A stretch of DNA of 64,000 nt. Source: Gemmatimonadota bacterium. Lineage in GTDB: Bacteria; Gemmatimonadota; Gemmatimonadetes; Gemmatimonadales; Gemmatimonadaceae. The notes under the pieces are model-generated. The model did not search any database and was not told where the DNA came from. It was given only the letters and a program-made list of their open reading frames with translations. The translations under genes and the position numbers were made by a program. How positions within the stretch are numbered: the first letter of the stretch is position 1; each line of letters begins with the position of its first letter. Below, one piece after another: positions 55,324-64,000 of the stretch. Where the stretch lies: assembly GCA_031372565.1 (NCBI GenBank), contig JANMLN010000002.1, forward strand, positions 1-64,000, written 5' to 3'.

Positions 55324-57042
55324 CTACTTCTTGCTCCTCCGCACGGGCGCTCTCGCGGCGCCCGTCTTCGTTCCCGGCTTCTTCCCTGCCGCCGGTGCCG
55401 CCTGTTGACCCTTCGCCCCAGGCGCGCCCGCCACCACCACCGCACTCTCGATCCCCACGCGATCCACCGCCGTCACCACCACACGCACCACCGAGTCACC
55501 CACCGGCGCAACCGCGACCTGCCGCTGACTGCCGGGCAGAACGATCGTCCGCCACGCATCGCGCGCCAGCACGCGAACCGTCCAGTGCGCCACATCGCGC
55601 CCAGTGCCGGGCGCGAGCCGGACCACCTGTTCGCGAGACGCAGAATCTCGCGACAAGGTCGCCGTGGGCGCCGCCATCGGCCGCCGCTCGAGCCACGGCG
55701 TGGCAGGCGCGAGCGCGGGCACCTGGTACACGTCGCGCTTGAGCCGATCAAAGATCGGGTCCACGGGTGCGAGTGGAACAACCGGGGTTGGCGCCGCGCC
55801 CAGCGCTGCGGTGGACGCCCCCGCCGTGACGCTGTCGCGCCTCGACGCCGGAGATGCGGGCGCCGCGACAACCGGTGGCACTGGCACCACGGGCATCAGC
55901 GGCCGCATGCTGAAGTGGATGTCGCCCCCCGTCTTCGCTGCGCGACTCGCCCGCACCTGATTGCTGATCTCGTCGACCCCCCACGCTCCCGTCGGGTTCG
56001 CACCGCGCGTGGTGTAGTGCCCGGGCCACACGTGCCGCTGCTTGCGATTCTCGCCCAGCCACCAGTCCAGCAGCACCGGATACGCCTGCGGCACCTGGGC
56101 AATCGGCCAGTAGAGTTGCGGTGTGAAGTAGTCGACCCACCCTTCGTGCAGCCAGCGCTTCGCGTCCGCGTACAGCTTGGCGTACGCATCAAACCCCTTG
56201 ATCTGCGCCGGATTCCCGGGACGCCAGATGCCGAACGGGCTGATGCCCACCTGCACGTGCGGCTTGAGCTTCTTGGTGCGCACGTACATCTGCTCGACCA
56301 ACAGGTCGACGTTGCGGCGCCGCCAATCATCGCGCGCGAGCGTGCCACCCCCCTTCTGGTAGCGCGCGAACGACGCGCCATCCGGGAACTCCATCGGCTG
56401 ACCGTCCGCGCCGTTCTCCGGATACGGATAGAAGTAGTCGTCGATGTGAACGCCATCGATGTCGTAGCGCTTCACGATGTCGGCGATCACGTCGAGCGTG
56501 CGCTTGACCACCCGCGGCTCCCCGGGATCCATCCACAGGGACTTGCCATAGGTGCGCACCAACTCGGGATGCGTCACGCTGATGTGCGTGCCGGCGCTGG
56601 GACTCGTGGCGCTCGCGTGGCGCGCGCGGTACGGGTTCACCCACGCGTGCAGCTCGAGCCCGCGTGCATGCGCTTCCGCGACCGCGAACGCGAGTGGATC
56701 GTAGAACGGCTCCGGTGCACGCCCTTCGAGGCCAGTCAGATACGCCGACCACGGTTCCAGCGCCGAGGGGTACAGTGCATCAGCGGCAGGCCGCACCTGC
56801 AACAACACCGCATTCAGATTGAGCGTGCGCGCCCGGTCGAGAATGGCCAACAGCTCGGCCTGCTGCTCGAACGTGGACAGCCCGGGCTTGGTCGGCCAAT
56901 CAATGTTGGCCACCGACGCCACCCACACACCGCGGAACTCGCGCGGCACCTGCGGCGGCGCGCTCGACGCCTGCCCCGACATCTCTCCCGACATGACCGC
57001 GATCGCCACGGCGGCCCAGCTGTGTCGCATCCTCATGCGCAT
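55324..57042 (-). CDS. Glycosyl hydrolase-like 10 (YddW/DigH-like) protein
   Basis: REFRGVWVASVANIDWP, LQVRPAADALY, ELHAWVNPYR, DGVHIDDYFYPY, GISPFGIW, PQLYW. Confidence 0.9.
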   Translation of the reverse strand: MRMRMRHSWAAVAIAVMSGEMSGQASSAPPQVPREFRGVWVASVANIDWPTKPGLSTFEQQAELLAILDRARTLNLNAVLLQVRPAADALYPSALEPWSAYLTGLEGRAPEPFYDPLAFAVAEAHARGLELHAWVNPYRARHASATSPSAGTHISVTHPELVRTYGKSLWMDPGEPRVVKRTLDVIADIVKRYDIDGVHIDDYFYPYPENGADGQPMEFPDGASFARYQKGGGTLARDDWRRRNVDLLVEQMYVRTKKLKPHVQVGISPFGIWRPGNPAQIKGFDAYAKLYADAKRWLHEGWVDYFTPQLYWPIAQVPQAYPVLLDWWLGENRKQRHVWPGHYTTRGANPTGAWGVDEISNQVRASRAAKTGGDIHFSMRPLMPVVPVPPVVAAPASPASRRDSVTAGASTAALGAAPTPVVPLAPVDPIFDRLKRDVYQVPALAPATPWLERRPMAAPTATLSRDSASREQVVRLAPGTGRDVAHWTVRVLARDAWRTIVLPGSQRQVAVAPVGDSVVRVVVTAVDRVGIESAVVVAGAPGAKGQQAAPAAGKKPGTKTGAARAPVRRSKK

Positions 57043-57113
57043 CGCCCGATGGAGTTGAAAACGGAACGGTGTCCGGACAGGGATGCCCGCGCCATCTGCT
57101 GCTTCGGGCGCTG

Positions 57114-57926
57114 TCACTTCTGACCGGCGATCGGACGCGCCCAATGCGGCGCCGTGCTCCACTGCGCCGGATCGAACAGCGCTGCCGGCAACGCGCGACC
57201 GGCCTGCCAGTCGAGGTAGTCTTCGGTCTGCACCAGCTTGCCCTGCACGTGAAAGGTGCAGTGGATCGCGAGCAGTCCCTCTCCGGCCGGGCGCACATCG
57301 CCCAGGCGCATGTCCATCACCGGCGCGCCGCGAACCGGCACGAAGATGGCGCGCAGCACCATCCGGTTCTGCGCATCGACCCAGAACTGGGGACTCGTGG
57401 TGTCGCTCACGCTCGTGACGCCCACGATCCACACCGGTCGCCCATCGAACGTGCTTGCGACGGTCGGCTTCGAGAGGTCGACCTTCGTCACGGCGAGCTC
57501 GGCCACGGTCCGCTCCACCGGTTGCACGTAGACACCTTCGATGAGGGGCAGCAGCGAATTACCGCCCGCCGACTGCGCCACCTGCTTGCCGCCGCGGAAG
57601 ATGCGCGCCGAGTCGGGGGTGTAGAGGACGCCATTCCCCTGCGCGAGGTCGCCCGTGTCGATGCGCAGCTGCGTCGGTCCATTCTCCGGCTGTCGCACGC
57701 TCTCGTACCACGTGCTCACGCTCGGCGTCCCGTCCGGCGCGTACGTGGTGGTCTTCTGGACGAAGGTCAGCGTGGTGTACCAACGGCCGTCGTACGCGGC
57801 GCGCATGTCGCGCAACACGTCGAGCCCGGTGGCGGGCACCGGGGTCGCTCCTCGCCGTGCGACGGCACAACCGGAGAGCGCAGCCATCGCGGCGAGGACA
57901 AACAGGGTGGATCGACGTGTGTTCAT
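57114..57926 (-). CDS. Hypothetical lipoprotein (LolA-like fold possible)
   Basis: Lipobox LSGC; YDGRWYTTLTFVQKT, LRIDTG, QFWVD. Confidence 0.7.
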   Translation of the reverse strand: MNTRRSTLFVLAAMAALSGCAVARRGATPVPATGLDVLRDMRAAYDGRWYTTLTFVQKTTTYAPDGTPSVSTWYESVRQPENGPTQLRIDTGDLAQGNGVLYTPDSARIFRGGKQVAQSAGGNSLLPLIEGVYVQPVERTVAELAVTKVDLSKPTVASTFDGRPVWIVGVTSVSDTTSPQFWVDAQNRMVLRAIFVPVRGAPVMDMRLGDVRPAGEGLLAIHCTFHVQGKLVQTEDYLDWQAGRALPAALFDPAQWSTAPHWARPIAGQK

Positions 57927-57999
57927 GGAAGGCGAGCCGATTCGAGGAGATGCGACAACGGAACGTGCCCCGCCCTACGAGTGCGGTTCGCCAAATGCT

Positions 58000-59814
58000 T
58001 CACGCCGCCCCGATCCCCAACCGTGCCAGCACCGCGGCCCGACGCTCGTGCACGGTCAGCACGACCAGATCGCCCGGCGCCGCCCACGCCATGGCCAGCT
58101 GCACCGCTTCGGGTTCACTGTCGGCACGACGCAGCTGCTCCGGCGCCGCACCACACGCCGTCAACTCGGCCATCATGATGTCCGCCACCGATCCTTCGGC
58201 ACGACCGCGCGCGAAGTGCCGCAGCTCCTTGGCAATCACGAGATCGACCGGCACCGTGGTCCACGCCGCGCGCGCCATCGCGCGCAGCGCCTCGTCGTTG
58301 CGGTCGCCCGCCGTACCGATGACAACGGCGCGACGCCGCGCAGGCAGCGACGCGGTCGCATGCAGCAACGCCGCGACGGCTGCCGCGTTGTGCGCGTAGT
58401 CGAGCACCACGTCGACGCCCTGGACGCGGTGCCGCTCGAGACGACCAGGGTTGTCCTCCGGATCCGCACCAAAGCGCGTGAGCGCCGACTGCACGATGCC
58501 CATGGGAACGCCGAGCGCGCTCGCAGATGCCGCCGCCATCAGCGCATTGGACAGGTTGAAGCGCGCGGCACCGTCGAGCGTGCTCGGCAGCGCGTGCACG
58601 GCGACGACGGGTTCATCACCGGCGGCGCTCCGCCGCACGAGCATCCCGTGCACCACGGTCCAGGCCTCGGCCGAGCGCCAGAGCTGCCCCGCCGCCGGCG
58701 GCATCACCTCGGCGGCCGCCGCTTCGGTGAGCGCGTCGGAGGCGAGCAGATCGGCGGTGGCAAGGGCCGACATGCGGACGAGCGGGTGATCGGGGTCGAG
58801 CGAGCACCACACGATGCGCGCCCCCGTCGCGGGCCCCATCGCGCGCAGCGTCGGGTCATCGGCGTTCAAGACCAGTGTGCCATTGGTGCGCACCGCGCGC
58901 GCCACGGTGAGTTTCACATCGGCCAGCGCGTGCACATCGTGGATGCCGTAGTCGCCGAAGTGATCAGCCGACACATTGGTCACCACGGCCACGTCGGCCT
59001 CGTACATGGCGAGGCCGCGACGCAGCAGGCCGCCGCGCGCCGTCTCGAGCACCGCGGCACGGGCGCGCGCGTCGCGGAGTGCGAGCCGTGCGCCCGCGGG
59101 TCCCGAATAGTCGCCGCCATCGACCAACTCGCCGTCCACGAACACGCCGAGCGTCGAACTCATCGCGACTGGGCCCACCGCTTCGCGCAGAATGGCCGAG
59201 AGCATGCGCACGGTCGTGGTCTTGCCGTTGGAGCCCGTCACGAGCACGATCGGAATCCGGTCGTACTCGGGCCAGGCGATCGACGCCACCTCGGGCAGCT
59301 GCGCGATCGACCAGGAGCGTGCGCTCTGGCCGGTCCCGAGCGTGAGCGCATCGTTGTCGACCAGCACCGTGATCCTCCGGTCGCGCGCCTCACGAACCAG
59401 GTCCGCCAGATGCCACGACCGCTCGTCGTCGGCCATGATGCCGAGCGCGATGGCGGCATCGGCCACGTCAGGAAGCGCGTCCGCGGGTGCGCTGTGCCGC
59501 GCACGCACCAGTGCTTCGCCTCGTGCCCACGCCTGCTCGTTGAGCTCGGTGCCGGTCATGAGCGCATCCACCGGGACGCGCACGAAGCAACTCGCACCGT
59601 CCGGCGTCCGGCGCCAGACCGGCGACACGGTCCACCCGAGCGGACGTGCCAAGGCAACCGCGGCGTCACGCCACGCCGCCACGAACTCGTCGGCCAACGC
59701 GAGCTCTTCCGCCCGGAACTCGACATCGATCACGGCACCCGGGTCATCGCCAAACCGGTTCGGACCCATCAGGCGGCGCGAGTCGCGGATCGCCGGTGAT
59801 GCGAACTCGTCCAT
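58000..59814 (-). CDS. CphA paralogue: N-domain-like region + Mur-ligase (M) domain, no ATP-grasp domain
   Basis: RRLMGPN N-terminus; VTGSNGKTTTVRML, VLETARGGLLRRG, NVSADH, VLNADD, PGR, LDYAHN. Confidence 0.82.
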   Translation of the reverse strand: MDEFASPAIRDSRRLMGPNRFGDDPGAVIDVEFRAEELALADEFVAAWRDAAVALARPLGWTVSPVWRRTPDGASCFVRVPVDALMTGTELNEQAWARGEALVRARHSAPADALPDVADAAIALGIMADDERSWHLADLVREARDRRITVLVDNDALTLGTGQSARSWSIAQLPEVASIAWPEYDRIPIVLVTGSNGKTTTVRMLSAILREAVGPVAMSSTLGVFVDGELVDGGDYSGPAGARLALRDARARAAVLETARGGLLRRGLAMYEADVAVVTNVSADHFGDYGIHDVHALADVKLTVARAVRTNGTLVLNADDPTLRAMGPATGARIVWCSLDPDHPLVRMSALATADLLASDALTEAAAAEVMPPAAGQLWRSAEAWTVVHGMLVRRSAAGDEPVVAVHALPSTLDGAARFNLSNALMAAASASALGVPMGIVQSALTRFGADPEDNPGRLERHRVQGVDVVLDYAHNAAAVAALLHATASLPARRRAVVIGTAGDRNDEALRAMARAAWTTVPVDLVIAKELRHFARGRAEGSVADIMMAELTACGAAPEQLRRADSEPEAVQLAMAWAAPGDLVVLTVHERRAAVLARLGIGAA

Positions 59815-59860
59815 CGGTTCTCGGGCAGCCGGTGTTGTCGGGTGCGGCGTCTGCGCCACC

Positions 59861-62746
59861 CTAGTCGTCACCCGCGCGGGCGAGCAGCACACCGCGCTCG
59901 TCGCGGATGACGGTCGCATCGTCGGCCAGCACGCCGGCCATCGGGACGGGCTCCACGCGCACCGGGGTCGCGACCGGAGGCGCGGCGGTGGCGCGCACGT
60001 CATCGTCGGCGGGTGCCATGTCGGTGACCTGCGCACGGGGCACGGCGCGCGCGGCGTGCACCGCGTGGGCGTGCGGCTCCGCATCACGCGCCCCCGCGCC
60101 ACTGCTCCGGAAGTTCACGATCTGCTTCCACCCGCGCGCGAGGGCGTCGGCGAAGACGAGCAGCAGATCACCAGGCGCTGCCATGCGGAGCGCCGCGTCG
60201 ATCGCCTGCTGTTCATCGATGATGACGGTGATCTGGTCCGGACGCACGCCGTACTCGACGAGCGCCGCGGACAACATCCGCGGTACTTCCTCCTCGCCGC
60301 GCCCCCGCAGCGCGTCGTCGCGGCGGCAGATGACGTGATCGAAGCGCGCGCGCGCCGCCACTTCGGCGATTGCACGAATGTCCTCGTCGCGCCGGTCACC
60401 GGGGGCCGAGAGCACGAGCAGGCGCCGTCCCTTCACATCGAGCCGATTGGCCAGCTGGCAGAGTTCGTTGATGGCGTGTGCGTTATGCCCGTAGTCGAAG
60501 AGCACGCGGAACGGGTGCTGGTCGTACACGTTCAGGCGGCCCGGCGCCTGGAAGAACGACGAATCGAAGGTGCGGAGCCCGTGGCGGATATCCTCGAGCT
60601 TGACCCCCATGGCGTAGGCCATCGCGGCCGCGAACATCGCGTTCTGCACATTGTGCAGCGCCTTGCCCTCGAGCGTCGCCGGAATCAGGTGCGTCCACAA
60701 CAGCGGGATGTGGGCGCCCTTGTCGTAGATCGTGATCATCTCGCCGTTGACGCCCTGCTCGAGCGCAATCGCGCGCCCACCCGCGCGGATGTGCTCGCGC
60801 ACGAGCACGTGACCCGGATCCATCGTCACGTAGCACACGTGCCGGGCGTCGGTGTACGCCGCCATGCGCAGCGTGAGCGGATCGTCGGCGTTGAGCACCG
60901 CCGTGTCGCGCGCGATCTCGACGACGGTGCGCTTGACCTCCGCCAACTGTTCGACCGTGTCGATCCCCTTCTGCCCCAGATGATCGGGCTGGACGTTGAG
61001 GACCGCGGCCACGTCCACATGCCGTGTGGCCATGCCGGCGCGCAGCAGCCCGCCACGCGCCGTCTCGAGCACCGCCACGTCCACCGCCGGATCGGAGAGC
61101 ACGATGCGCGCGGCGGTCGGGCCGGTCATGTCGCCTTCGACCGTCCGCTGGCCGTCGATGTAGACACCGTCGGTGGTGGTGAGTCCCACGCGCTTGCCCG
61201 CGAGTTTGTGGATGTGAGCGAGCATGCGCACGGTCGTCGTCTTGCCGTTGGTGCCGGTCACCGCCGCGATCGGAATCGTCGCGGGTGACTGCCGCGGGAA
61301 GAGCATCTCGATGACCTTGCCCGCCACGTCGCGCGGCCGCCCTTCGCTGGGCGCCATGTGCATCCGGAAGCCGGGGGCCGCGTTCACCTCGCAGATCGCG
61401 CCGCCCACGTCCTTGTACGACCGGGTGATGTCGGGCGACAGGAAGTCCACGCCGCCGACATCGAGGCCGATCGCCTGGATCGCGCGCACCGCCATCTCGA
61501 CGTTGTCGGGATGCACGACGTCCGTCACGTCGGTCGCCGTTCCACCCGTGCTCAGATTCGCGGTCAAGCGCAGGAAGACCTCGTCGCCCGCAGCCGGGAC
61601 CGACTCGGGGGTCATGTCGCGCTTCGCCAGCAACCCCAGCGCCTGCTCGTCCAGCTCGATGCGCGTGAGCACCTTCTCGTGCCCGATCCCGCGGCGCGGG
61701 TCCTGATTCACGAGCTCGACGAGCGCGCGCACGGTGTGCGATCCATCGCCGACGACGTGGCCCGGAAGACGCTTCGCTGCGGCGACCAGTTCGCCGTTCA
61801 CCACCAGCATGCGATGGTCGTGCCCGGTGATGAAGCTCTCGACGATCACCGACCGCGAGTGTTCCGCCGCGCGCGCGAATGCCGCGCGCACCTCGTCTGG
61901 CGTCAGCAGGTTGACCGCAACACCACGCCCGTGATTGGCATTGTATGGCTTGCAGACCACCGGGTACCCGATGCGTTCGGCGGCACTCACCGCGCGTGAT
62001 GCGGACTGCACGAGACGCTGACGCGGCACCGGGAGCCCCAGATTCGCGAGGATCTTGTTCGTCTCTTCCTTGTCAGAGGCGATCTCGACCGCGATGTGCG
62101 ACGTGCGACTGGTGACCGTTGCCTGGATGCGCTGCTGGTGCTTGCCATACCCGAGCTGAATCAGCGACTGGTCATTGAGCCGCAGCCAGGGAATCTCGCG
62201 CGCTTCGGCCGCGTGCACGATGCTGGCCGTACTGGGCCCGAGCGCGCGACGCTGCGCATAGCGGATGAACTCGTCGCGCGCCGCATCCCACGTCCAGTCG
62301 GCCGGTTGATCCTCGGGCCGCAGCGCAGCGGGGAGCAACGAGCCGAGAAGGTGCAGGGCGACGTCCGCCGCTTCGTGCCCGACGTCCTCCTGCTCGTACT
62401 CGATGACGACGTCGTAGACGCCGGGACGCGCGGTCTCGCGCGTCTTGCCGAAGGTGACCTTCACCCCCGCCGCGTTCTGCAGCTCGATCGCCACATGTTC
62501 GAGGACATGGCCGAGCCACGTGCCGTCGTCCTCGGTCATCCGGCGCACGAAGCCGCCCGGTTCACCGTACGAGCAGCCGTGCTCGGCGAGGCCGGGGAGC
62601 GCCACCAGCAGGGCATCCACGAAGGCGCGCCCGAGCTTCATGGTCGGCCACGCCTCGAGCGGCCCGAGGTCGAGTTCGAGCCGGATGACCGGGAAATGGG
62701 CGTAGTGGCTCGGGCCGACGTAGGTCGAGCGATCGAGAATCTTCAT
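59861..62746 (-). CDS. cphA: Cyanophycin synthetase CphA1
   Basis: N domain C..HVLEH; LGPSTASI, ATP-grasp KPYNANHGRGV...ANLSTGG...EVNAAPG; Mur domain VTGTNGKTT, ETARGG, DYGHN. Confidence 0.95.
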   Translation of the reverse strand: MKILDRSTYVGPSHYAHFPVIRLELDLGPLEAWPTMKLGRAFVDALLVALPGLAEHGCSYGEPGGFVRRMTEDDGTWLGHVLEHVAIELQNAAGVKVTFGKTRETARPGVYDVVIEYEQEDVGHEAADVALHLLGSLLPAALRPEDQPADWTWDAARDEFIRYAQRRALGPSTASIVHAAEAREIPWLRLNDQSLIQLGYGKHQQRIQATVTSRTSHIAVEIASDKEETNKILANLGLPVPRQRLVQSASRAVSAAERIGYPVVCKPYNANHGRGVAVNLLTPDEVRAAFARAAEHSRSVIVESFITGHDHRMLVVNGELVAAAKRLPGHVVGDGSHTVRALVELVNQDPRRGIGHEKVLTRIELDEQALGLLAKRDMTPESVPAAGDEVFLRLTANLSTGGTATDVTDVVHPDNVEMAVRAIQAIGLDVGGVDFLSPDITRSYKDVGGAICEVNAAPGFRMHMAPSEGRPRDVAGKVIEMLFPRQSPATIPIAAVTGTNGKTTTVRMLAHIHKLAGKRVGLTTTDGVYIDGQRTVEGDMTGPTAARIVLSDPAVDVAVLETARGGLLRAGMATRHVDVAAVLNVQPDHLGQKGIDTVEQLAEVKRTVVEIARDTAVLNADDPLTLRMAAYTDARHVCYVTMDPGHVLVREHIRAGGRAIALEQGVNGEMITIYDKGAHIPLLWTHLIPATLEGKALHNVQNAMFAAAMAYAMGVKLEDIRHGLRTFDSSFFQAPGRLNVYDQHPFRVLFDYGHNAHAINELCQLANRLDVKGRRLLVLSAPGDRRDEDIRAIAEVAARARFDHVICRRDDALRGRGEEEVPRMLSAALVEYGVRPDQITVIIDEQQAIDAALRMAAPGDLLLVFADALARGWKQIVNFRSSGAGARDAEPHAHAVHAARAVPRAQVTDMAPADDDVRATAAPPVATPVRVEPVPMAGVLADDATVIRDERGVLLARAGDD

Positions 62747-62794
62747 GACACGCGGCGCGAAGGGGGGATGCGAAGGCGGCGCTTTGCGCTGCGC

Positions 62795-63613
62795 TTACTC
62801 GTCGGACAGGACAGCGGAGGCGGGCTGCGCCGTCTTCGTGGCGAGGTCGAAGGTGGCGCCGGGGCCCAGCACCGAGACCCGCACGCCCGTCAGGGTGATG
62901 GGCTCATGCGGCAACGCGAGCGCCACCGTGTTGAGGCCGACGCCGCTCGCATCGACGATGGTGACGGCCCCTTCGCCCATGACCTCGATCGTGTCGTCCG
63001 GACGGATCACGGCGGCGGTGTTCTCGTCGACCCCGAGCCCGAGGTGCTCGGGCGCATACGCAATGGCGGTCAGCAATCGGCCGAGCCGGTCCCGCTCGCG
63101 GAAGTGCTGGTCGATGATGAACCGATCGGTCAAGCCGAAGCCGGCCGCCATGGTGACCATGCCAGCCCGGGGCGACGGGCCTTCATCGCCGCGCGCGATC
63201 ATGAAGCGCGACATGATGGCCGCACCGGCCGACGTCCCCGCCACCGTCACGCCGTCGGCATGCCGCTGCTGCAGGAGCGCGTGCGCGGGGGTACCGCCGA
63301 CGATGCTCGTGAGGCGCAGTTGGTCGCCCCCGGTGATGAAGATGCCGGTCGCGCTCCCCAGCTCCTCGAGCCAATCGGCATCATCGCAGTCGCTGCGACG
63401 CTCGAACGGCAGGGCCTTGGCGCGAGCGACGCCGAGTCGCGCAAAGGCGCGCTCGTACCAGGTCCCCATGTCAGGCTCGAGGGATGCGGTCGGGAGGATC
63501 GCAATGCGCGCCGCGCGCCCGCCGGAGAGGCTGATGAAGCGCTCGAGGATGTGATCGTCCGAGAGCTTGCCGCCGATGGGGATCAGGGTGCCACGCGTCG
63601 GGCCAAAAAGCAT
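62795..63613 (-). CDS. cphB: Cyanophycinase
   Basis: LIPIGG, ILPTAS, FITGGDQLRL, GTSAGAA nucleophile motif, IDQHFRERDRLGRL, GVDENTA. Confidence 0.93.
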   Translation of the reverse strand: MLFGPTRGTLIPIGGKLSDDHILERFISLSGGRAARIAILPTASLEPDMGTWYERAFARLGVARAKALPFERRSDCDDADWLEELGSATGIFITGGDQLRLTSIVGGTPAHALLQQRHADGVTVAGTSAGAAIMSRFMIARGDEGPSPRAGMVTMAAGFGLTDRFIIDQHFRERDRLGRLLTAIAYAPEHLGLGVDENTAAVIRPDDTIEVMGEGAVTIVDASGVGLNTVALALPHEPITLTGVRVSVLGPGATFDLATKTAQPASAVLSDE

Positions 63614-63796
63614 GCAAGCGAAGTGTCGGAGACGGAGGGCGCGGTGCTGCTCAAAGCTACCGTGTCCCGGGCGTGACGGCGACTGGGGCGGCGCGGTCGC
63701 CGAGGACCAGCCGCCCGAGCCCATCGCCCTTGTGTCACCGCACTCCAGCGGTCCATGTTCGGCGAGTAACTCCTGCGGTCTCTTGCCGGATGCCTC

Positions 63797-64000
63797 ATGC
63801 GCCTGTCTGCCCGCCTCGCTCTTGCCGCCGTGCTGGTCACCCCGCTGCGCGCGCCGCTCCTTGCACAGCTTCCCGGCTGCACACCGCTGCCGCCCGGCAG
63901 CGCTCGGAGCGGCCCCGCCTTCGCCTTCAACGCCGTGCGCGAGGACGTGATTCACGCCGTGGGCACGGGGACGATGGTGGTGGGCGCCAACGCGACCATC
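63797..64000 (+). CDS. Partial secreted protein (possibly MBL-fold), runs off the window
   Basis: MRLSARLALAAVLV...LLAQ signal peptide; FNAVREDVIHAVG...GANATI. Confidence 0.5.
   Translation, partial: MRLSARLALAAVLVTPLRAPLLAQLPGCTPLPPGSARSGPAFAFNAVREDVIHAVGTGTMVVGANATI

Follow-up and report, generated by a model that had tools for sequence, protein, structure and literature searches.

The last 6 kb of a 64,000-nucleotide stretch of contig JANMLN010000002.1 from a Gemmatimonadota bacterium (hereafter the window) hold three cyanophycin genes, all on the minus strand, in the order cphB, cphA1 and a third gene (58000..59814) encoding a 604-residue paralogue of CphA that has no ATP-grasp (G) domain. 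The third protein corresponds to cyanophycin synthetase 1 (CphA1) reduced to its N-plus-M unit, without the G domain, and its catalytic residues are preserved. It belongs to a conserved family that is an old paralogue of CphA1 and not an erratic truncation, and this gene family has already been catalogued as cphA', of which the present case is a further member, from Gemmatimonadota. With moderate confidence, we favour the reading that the third protein (below, CphA') would be an active ATP-dependent amide ligase acting in trans on cyanophycin or on its short precursors.

Domain architecture and predicted fold of the third protein

Only two Pfam domains were detected in the third protein, Mur_ligase_M (residues 192-342; 76.8 bits, cut-off 24) and Mur_ligase_C (residues 457-586; 55.7 bits, cut-off 28.4), both passing their thresholds, with neither an ATP-grasp nor a Cyanophycin_syn match. 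The same pattern was found across the family, for which Mur_ligase_M and Mur_ligase_C were matched by 35/35 members, the ATP-grasp Pfam families by 0/35 at E<=1, and the N-domain model PF18921 by 0/35 even at E<=1. The protein scored below the cut-offs of the CphA1 models (TIGR02068, 333 bits vs 850; NF010623, 292 bits vs 877) and also failed the MurE model TIGR01085 (86 bits vs a cut-off of 257). In a BLASTP comparison, residues 187-586 were aligned with residues 491-864 of the window CphA1 with 154/402 identical positions (38%; E 4e-61). Ahead of this region, hhalign paired residues 92-165 with CphA1 127-204 (E 9e-5, probability 59%; E 1.4e-4 and 52% in a repeat), and the stretch LVREARDRRI...LTLGTG is homologous to the CphA1 stretch IVHAAEAREI...IQLGYG, which covers the N-domain end and the opening strands of the G domain. 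Profile alignment failed for residues 1-87, the hhalign matches covering only residues 88/92-165. The third protein has GPN at position 17, LTLGTG at 157-162 and the P-loop TGSNGKT at 193, while in CphA1 the corresponding IQLGYG and TGTNGKT stand at 196-201 and 497; the spacing between the two motifs is thus far shorter than in CphA1, and approximately 265 residues, the ATP-grasp core, are therefore missing.

On the minus strand, the N domain (residues 1-110) is encoded at 59485..59814 and is read, from its AlphaFold2 (AF2) fold match, as a strand-strand-helix unit occurring twice, with the GPN loop at residues 17-19 and no HxxEH. Residues 111-186 (59257..59484), placed by hhalign, form a linker with a relic of the G-domain start and are fused straight to the M domain. 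The core of the latter (Mcore, residues 187-455, 58450..59256; Pfam Mur_ligase_M) carries the P-loop (193-200), T221, E257, D284-H285, K301, N317/D320 and N420/N423, and its lid (Mlid, residues 456-604, 58003..58449; Pfam Mur_ligase_C) carries R458, D472, H475, N476, G503-R505 and R536-G-R538. An Ala-rich insertion of 29 residues in Mcore (residues 349-377, 58684..58770), predicted to be disordered, was limited to the window protein and its four closest relatives (5/35 rows of alignment A1). HxxEH was found within the first 200 residues of 0/65 family members, against C..HxxEH in 64/64 neighbouring CphA1s; in CphA1 generally, a Cx19HxxEH metallopeptidase site is present in 83% of sequences at nr70 (PMC9262961).

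The full-length AF2 model of the third protein had a mean predicted local distance difference test (pLDDT) score of 90.1 and a predicted template modelling (pTM) score of 0.90, with low values (pLDDT <50) only at residues 353-381. Its best matches in the PDB were CphA1 chains (E 2e-35; TMq, the TM-score normalised to the query, 0.75-0.81), over approximately 912 alignment columns, and the CphA1 match therefore covers N as well as M and leaves the G domain as a gap; for MurE, TMq against the full model was only about 0.5. Residues 1-186 modelled alone (AF2 pLDDT 94) gave CphA1 or CphA2 chains as all of the 13 best PDB matches (E 3.9e-7 to 2e-3, TMq 0.45-0.58), those to the CphA2 N domain lying at E 2.6e-4 to 2e-3, and beyond these 13 unrelated folds were matched at TMq <0.3. 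Residues 1-110 are accordingly modelled as an N domain of the cyanophycin-synthetase type, recognisable by fold only, which in the prediction packs on Mcore as in CphA1. From the predicted secondary structure this N domain appears to be shortened and to lack the CphA1 region that contains the Cys together with the loops surrounding the metallopeptidase site. In SuCphA1, an N-domain loop with Y14 and I17 packs on the M domain (PMC9262961), and by our reading this loop would correspond to the GPN loop retained in the third protein. Against the ESM Atlas, residues 1-186 scored 0.80-0.88, below the 0.9 level, and a single cluster at 0.80 had PF18921 on 57% of its members, a weak lead. A complex prediction combining the CphA1 G domain (160-490; A3) with the whole third protein (A1) returned a score of 0.00 in both runs and, having been run with no controls, is uninformative either way.

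When set beside the M domain of solved CphA1 structures (7lg5, 7wae, 7lgn and 7lgm), the third protein has the same Mur core and lid, the same catalytic residues and an N domain packed on Mcore, but it stands as a polypeptide of its own, lacking both the ATP-grasp domain and HxxEH, and many residues invariant in CphA1 have been lost. Like CphA2 (7ta5, 8fxh), it is a reduced paralogue of cyanophycin synthetase in which the N domain is accompanied by a single functional ligase module. The module retained in CphA2 is the G domain, and that enzyme repolymerises beta-Asp-Arg dipeptides (PMC10206079). The reduction is thus reversed in the two proteins, CphA2 retaining G with a reduced M domain and the third protein having a complete M domain and no G. 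The third protein also shares superfamily, fold and ATP/acyl-phosphate chemistry with MurE and the other peptidoglycan Mur ligases; unlike MurE, it has the N-domain fold of cyanophycin synthetases, and its gene context is cyanophycin and not the cell wall. The family profile scored solved CphA1 structures at E 1e-102, as compared to approximately 1e-22 to 1e-26 for MurE. These data bear out the initial annotation, made from the sequence alone, which had described a protein collinear with CphA through the GPN motif and the LVREARDRRI...LTLGTG stretch, lacking some 265 residues of ATP-grasp and the N-domain C..HxxEH site, with all Mur-ligase motifs intact, and had called it the mirror image of CphA2. 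The profile-based domain mapping that it had proposed as a check, given above, agreed with this description, as did the Pfam and fold matches (N and M kept, ATP-grasp core gone) and the conservation of the motifs (below). The side-chain ligase function that it had inferred is plausible.

Family, genomic linkage and the catalogued cphA'

A word-indexed protein search with the third protein produced 7752 proteins at E<=1e-3. Lengths were examined for the top 120: 117 were of 539-645 residues, 116 of these being at 95-100% query coverage, and the other three were fragments of 334-396 residues. The matches were named at source as 'Mur ligase family protein', 'Mur ligase', 'cyanophycin synthetase' or 'UDP-N-acetylmuramyl tripeptide synthase', and no curated model specific to the family was found in NCBIfam or Pfam. 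An N-terminal profile (A2, 36 sequences), run against 1.84 billion cluster representatives (clusters at 50% identity), matched 878 clusters at E<=1e-3, 648 at <=1e-10 and 250 at <=1e-30. Of the 150 clusters listed, the longer proteins were mostly of 550-660 residues, accompanied by many shorter fragments and one protein of 757 residues, and none was of CphA1 length.

Gene context was resolved by a genome scan, from which the best 80 of 375 confirmed matches, the loci most like the window protein, were used. These derived from Gemmatimonadota, Lysobacterales, Burkholderiales, Colwellia and other Alteromonadales, Steroidobacteraceae, Acidobacteriota, Myxococcota, Alphaproteobacteria and others. 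A complete cphA1 was located directly upstream on the same strand in 64 of the 67 informative loci (those with at least 3.3 kb upstream), and cphA was nearby on the opposite strand in two more (L020 and L060), with cphA1 within 10 kb in 66/67 informative loci from several phyla. cphB was present in 61/63 of the loci with cphA1 and at least 4.5 kb upstream. No conserved downstream gene was found among the 70 loci with at least 1.5 kb downstream, the largest group comprising seven. The initial annotation had named co-occurrence with cphA and cphB as a test, and homologues unlinked to cphA or erratic truncations as outcomes that would speak against it; the homologues proved to be linked, and their lengths stable.

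A few loci departed from the common arrangement. At L020 (655-5885) the family gene and a cphA of lower similarity (35-51% identity to the window CphA1) are divergently oriented, with a cphB beyond the latter, and at L060 (10001-14032) a convergent cphA1 was matched only in pieces. The family gene at L051 (3226-9853) is neighboured by a family-2 glycosyltransferase (GT2), an amidohydrolase, an aldehyde dehydrogenase and a C-N hydrolase. At L074 (4990-6729, Congregibacter), no typical cphB was found on the same strand; its place is taken by two Peptidase_S51-like matches that are weaker (31-33% identity to the window CphB) and lie on the opposite strand.

The family ORFs (open reading frames) were of 541-626 residues in 64/67 loci, one being cut by the contig end. 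Two apparent long forms (843 and 876 residues, at L021 and L080) were rejected as start-codon artefacts in open high-GC frames overlapping cphA1. When 65 family members and 64 neighbouring CphA1s were placed in one tree of the M domain, a single branch (support 1.0, length 1.15) separated the groups. Identity to the M domain of the CphA1 encoded next door averaged 0.354 (range 0.309-0.407; 54 loci), and the family profile scored cyanobacterial CphA1 at 348 bits vs 326-331 bits for the gammaproteobacterial type. Because identity to the neighbour was always low and cyanobacterial CphA1 scored no worse, the duplication is old, and neither recent nor local. The distance matrices of the family and of the partner CphA1s were correlated (r = 0.90), which is no evidence of interaction since shared descent alone would give it.

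A gene in this position has been described before. Vollmers et al. 2013 reported an Octadecabacter arcticus cluster of cphB, cphA (Group VI), cphA' (Group VII, 'cyanophycin ligase-like') and iaaA (PMC3646047, supplementary Fig. S2B). Their Table S2 holds 31 Group VI and 28 Group VII sequences, with consecutive accessions for the two groups in Colwellia psychrerythraea 34H, Congregibacter litoralis, NOR5-3, Plesiocystis pacifica and many Francisella strains, and with Group VI but no Group VII partner for Acinetobacter sp. ADP1 (A. baylyi) and Mycobacterium marinum. Both groups are credited there to Fuser & Steinbuchel 2007, and the parts of the paper available to us give cphA' neither a domain architecture nor a function. 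In our data, the Colwellia loci (L022, L041, L058, L068 and L077) and the Congregibacter locus L074 had the order cphB-cphA1-third gene and no other cphA-like gene; from this synteny in the same genera, rather than from a comparison of the sequences themselves, we infer that the third gene and its family belong to cphA'/Group VII. The cphB-cphA-cphA' order was found in the window and in 64/67 loci, and nothing is known to differ between the window cluster and Group VII; the window copy carries the 29-residue insertion described above.

The statement in the initial annotation that no characterised example was known may still hold: our full-text literature searches returned no paper characterising the activity or the N-M architecture of a G-less CphA paralogue, but the gene itself had already been catalogued (PMC3646047). 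The family is not mentioned in the searched passages of the structural and bioinformatic cyanophycin papers PMC10206079, PMC9262961 and PMC9427784, nor in the abstract of PMC10273328. In Francisella, deletion of 'cphA' produced a regulatory phenotype in broth culture, the passage seen not specifying which of the two genes was deleted (PMC2763202). A 2013 study reportedly dealt with the cphA' of Ralstonia eutropha.

Catalytic residues, proposed function and alternatives

The case for activity comes from the active site. The P-loop GxNGK[ST] was present in 65/65 family members, and the LETARGG, DH, K301, LNADD, PGR, D-x-x-HN and GDR motifs are all found in the third protein. Positions conserved to at least 90% both in the family and in CphA1 include T221, E257, D284-H285, K301, N317/A318/D320, N420 and N423, followed in the lid by R458, D472, H475, N476, G503/R505/D507, R536 and R538. 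K301 sits at what we take to be the place of the carbamylated Lys of MurD/E/F. In TeCphA1, ATP and Mg are bound by K499, T522, E558, R731 and H748 (PMC9427784), and by alignment all five have conserved equivalents in the family, R458 and H475 corresponding to the ATP contacts R731 and H748, respectively. The D284-H285 pair aligns with D585/H586 of SuCphA1, the double alanine substitution of which (D585A H586A) inactivates the M domain (PMC9262961).

On the reading favoured here, CphA' would be translated from a transcript shared with cphB and cphA1, would bind a chain in the groove between N and Mcore, would phosphorylate a free carboxylate there (by analogy, the beta-carboxylate of an Asp without a side chain) and would then couple an amino acid to this group. 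The M domain of CphA1 attaches Arg to the beta-carboxylate (PMC9427784). Backbone extension with Asp is beyond CphA', because there is no G domain, as is the cutting of primers, because there is no HxxEH site.

Several observations weigh against this reading. Dozens of M-domain positions with 90-100% conservation among the CphA1s are variable in the family, including (in window CphA1 numbering) K514, Y529, D531, E663, Y674, D675, H679, H686, R721, R786 and D789, and the D810-D811 pair ahead of the RGR motif. Few positions are conserved in the family only (R247, T279, W336, F337, D454-N455 before PGR, A502 and P522). Such a pattern fits a changed or looser substrate site, and could also fit a mainly structural role. 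The family has evolved much faster than CphA1, with a mean pairwise identity of 0.43 vs 0.67 (lower in all 1431 pairs from 54 loci) and a summed branch length of 31.2 vs 9.2. At L051 there is a family gene without cphA1 within 8.8 kb and, as the 80 loci are those most like the window protein, more distant members may sit elsewhere. An activity for a family member was not found in the literature searched. A. baylyi CphA1 is active on its own and no Group VII protein is listed for Acinetobacter; cphA' is therefore not generally needed for polymer synthesis. Some of the lost CphA1 positions probably served contacts with the G domain, and others may line the Arg site. Given the number of CphA1-invariant M-domain residues that are lost, the amino acid or the acceptor may differ from that of CphA1. 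Tentatively, and with clearly lower confidence than for ligase activity as such, CphA' could be an isopeptide ligase that works in trans and has its own specificity, placing a residue other than Arg on Asp side chains or adding a C-terminal cap that blocks extension by the CphA1 G domain. If so, bacteria with cphA' (Gemmatimonadota, Lysobacterales, Colwellia and others) would make a chemically distinct or length-controlled variant of cyanophycin, and CphA' would be a ready tool for tailoring the polymer.

A different role in the same pathway would be that of a partner subunit, docking on CphA1 (for example, on the G-core surfaces) and tuning rate, chain length or granule formation, with its own catalysis secondary. 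In solved CphA1 tetramers each Mcore contacts three Gcore modules (PMC9427784), the docking surfaces being covered there by the M domains of other protomers. The third gene lies almost always in the cphA1 operon and, from gene order, would be co-transcribed with it, the partner CphA1s share a conserved RDERG tail (below) that might be a docking peptide, and the fast evolution and few family-specific invariant residues fit such a role as well. The window CphA1 is nearest to the enzymes of T. morbirosei and A. baylyi, which are dimers and in which the G-core surfaces would be free. Yet a purely structural subunit would not need catalytic residues that are invariant across phyla, shared descent would suffice to explain why the divergence of the two proteins is correlated, and no physical evidence of binding was found; we regard this role as rather unlikely. 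The retained M-type chemistry would also suit an initiator that adds Arg to free Asp or very short oligomers, yielding beta-Asp-Arg or (beta-Asp-Arg)-Asp-type primers de novo and shortening the slow primer-free start of CphA1, and the changed substrate-site residues could mean a small-molecule acceptor. CphA1 is very slow without primers, (beta-Asp-Arg)-Asp being the minimal primer (PMC9262961). The 64/64 partner CphA1s, however, carry the primer-generating C..HxxEH site and should therefore already be primer-independent; the kept polymer-binding N domain argues for a polymeric substrate, and the CphA1 M domain needs a chain ending in an unmodified Asp (PMC9427784). Such an initiator role is, in our view, unlikely, slightly more so than that of a subunit.

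It is still less probable that CphA' is a Mur-type ligase for a target other than cyanophycin (a cell-wall peptide, another polyamide or a cofactor tail), standing beside cphA1 by descent only. The L051 locus and the loss of many CphA1-specific M-domain residues would be consistent with this, but the family profile scores CphA1 structures far ahead of MurE, the N domain is of the cyanophycin-synthetase fold, cphA1 is within 10 kb at all but one of the informative loci in several phyla, and no conserved gene follows, the largest downstream family reaching 7/70 loci. As for a decaying or accidental truncation of a duplicated cphA1, which the 265 or so residues missing relative to CphA1 might suggest, it is excluded by the stable ORF lengths, the clean split from the neighbouring CphA1s on a long branch, the low identity to the neighbour's M domain at every locus (0.31-0.41, an old duplication), the invariant catalytic residues and the confident fold prediction.

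The favoured reading of CphA' as a ligase would matter beyond this cluster. Cyanophycin is a nitrogen store that is also studied for industry (PMC9262961, PMC10273328), and its synthesis is usually ascribed to a single enzyme; in many non-cyanobacterial lineages that enzyme is adjoined by a second ligase that is widespread, conserved and, as judged from its residues, apparently active. With this second ligase gene beside cphA1, a part of the pathway is therefore unexplained. Should cphA' alter composition, chain length or initiation, the one-enzyme picture would have to be revised for these bacteria, and a separate side-chain ligase would become available for polymer engineering. The present analysis supplies the domain borders, a confident model, the catalytic residues, the positions differing from CphA1, and natural cphA1/cphA' pairs from harmless bacteria.

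Operon layout and neighbouring genes

The G+C content of the window is 0.66-0.72 per 2 kb. cphB (62795..63613, minus strand), the first gene in the operon, encodes a cyanophycinase of 272 residues, with its start at the M of MLFGPTRG (63613); the 229-residue part that was scanned matched NCBIfam TIGR02069 (cyanophycinase, E 7e-67) and Pfam Peptidase_S51. It is followed after 48 nt by cphA1 (59861..62746, minus strand), which encodes a full-length cyanophycin synthetase 1 of 961 residues with N domain, ATP-grasp G domain, Mur-type M domain and a variable tail. This protein scored 1127 bits against TIGR02068 (cut-off 850) and matched Pfam Cyanophycin_syn (PF18921), ATP-grasp families, Mur_ligase_M and Mur_ligase_C; its N domain carries C58 and H80xxE83H84. 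The nearest solved structures were those from T. morbirosei (7lgn, 1039 bits) and A. baylyi (7lgm, 1021 bits).

The third gene (minus strand, 604 codons plus stop) begins 46 nt after cphA1. An in-frame GTG at 59857-59859, two bases past the cphA1 stop, is a possible alternative start that would give a protein of 619 residues; close homologues have approximately 10 extra N-terminal residues in alignment A1, and the GTG at 59859 could be the true start of the third gene. Its position just after the cphA1 stop suggests translational coupling. A scan of 57400-64000 found neither a promoter nor a terminator-like site.

A conserved C-terminal motif, (V/I)RDERG(V/I)R..E..D, was observed in the partner CphA1s behind a variable low-complexity linker, at 59864-59935 in the window and in the same region in L001-L080. 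The 39-residue tail of the window CphA1, a very short query, had no match at E<=10 among PDB sequences, including the A. baylyi and T. morbirosei chains.

Downstream of the third gene, on the same strand, are an ORF of 270 residues (57114-57926) with what reads as a lipoprotein-like N-terminus and no Pfam match, and a long ORF (55324-57432) with a GHL10 glycosyl-hydrolase-like domain, neither of which was conserved beside the family in the other loci. As listed, the GHL10-like ORF overlaps the 270-residue ORF, and its real start is probably further in.

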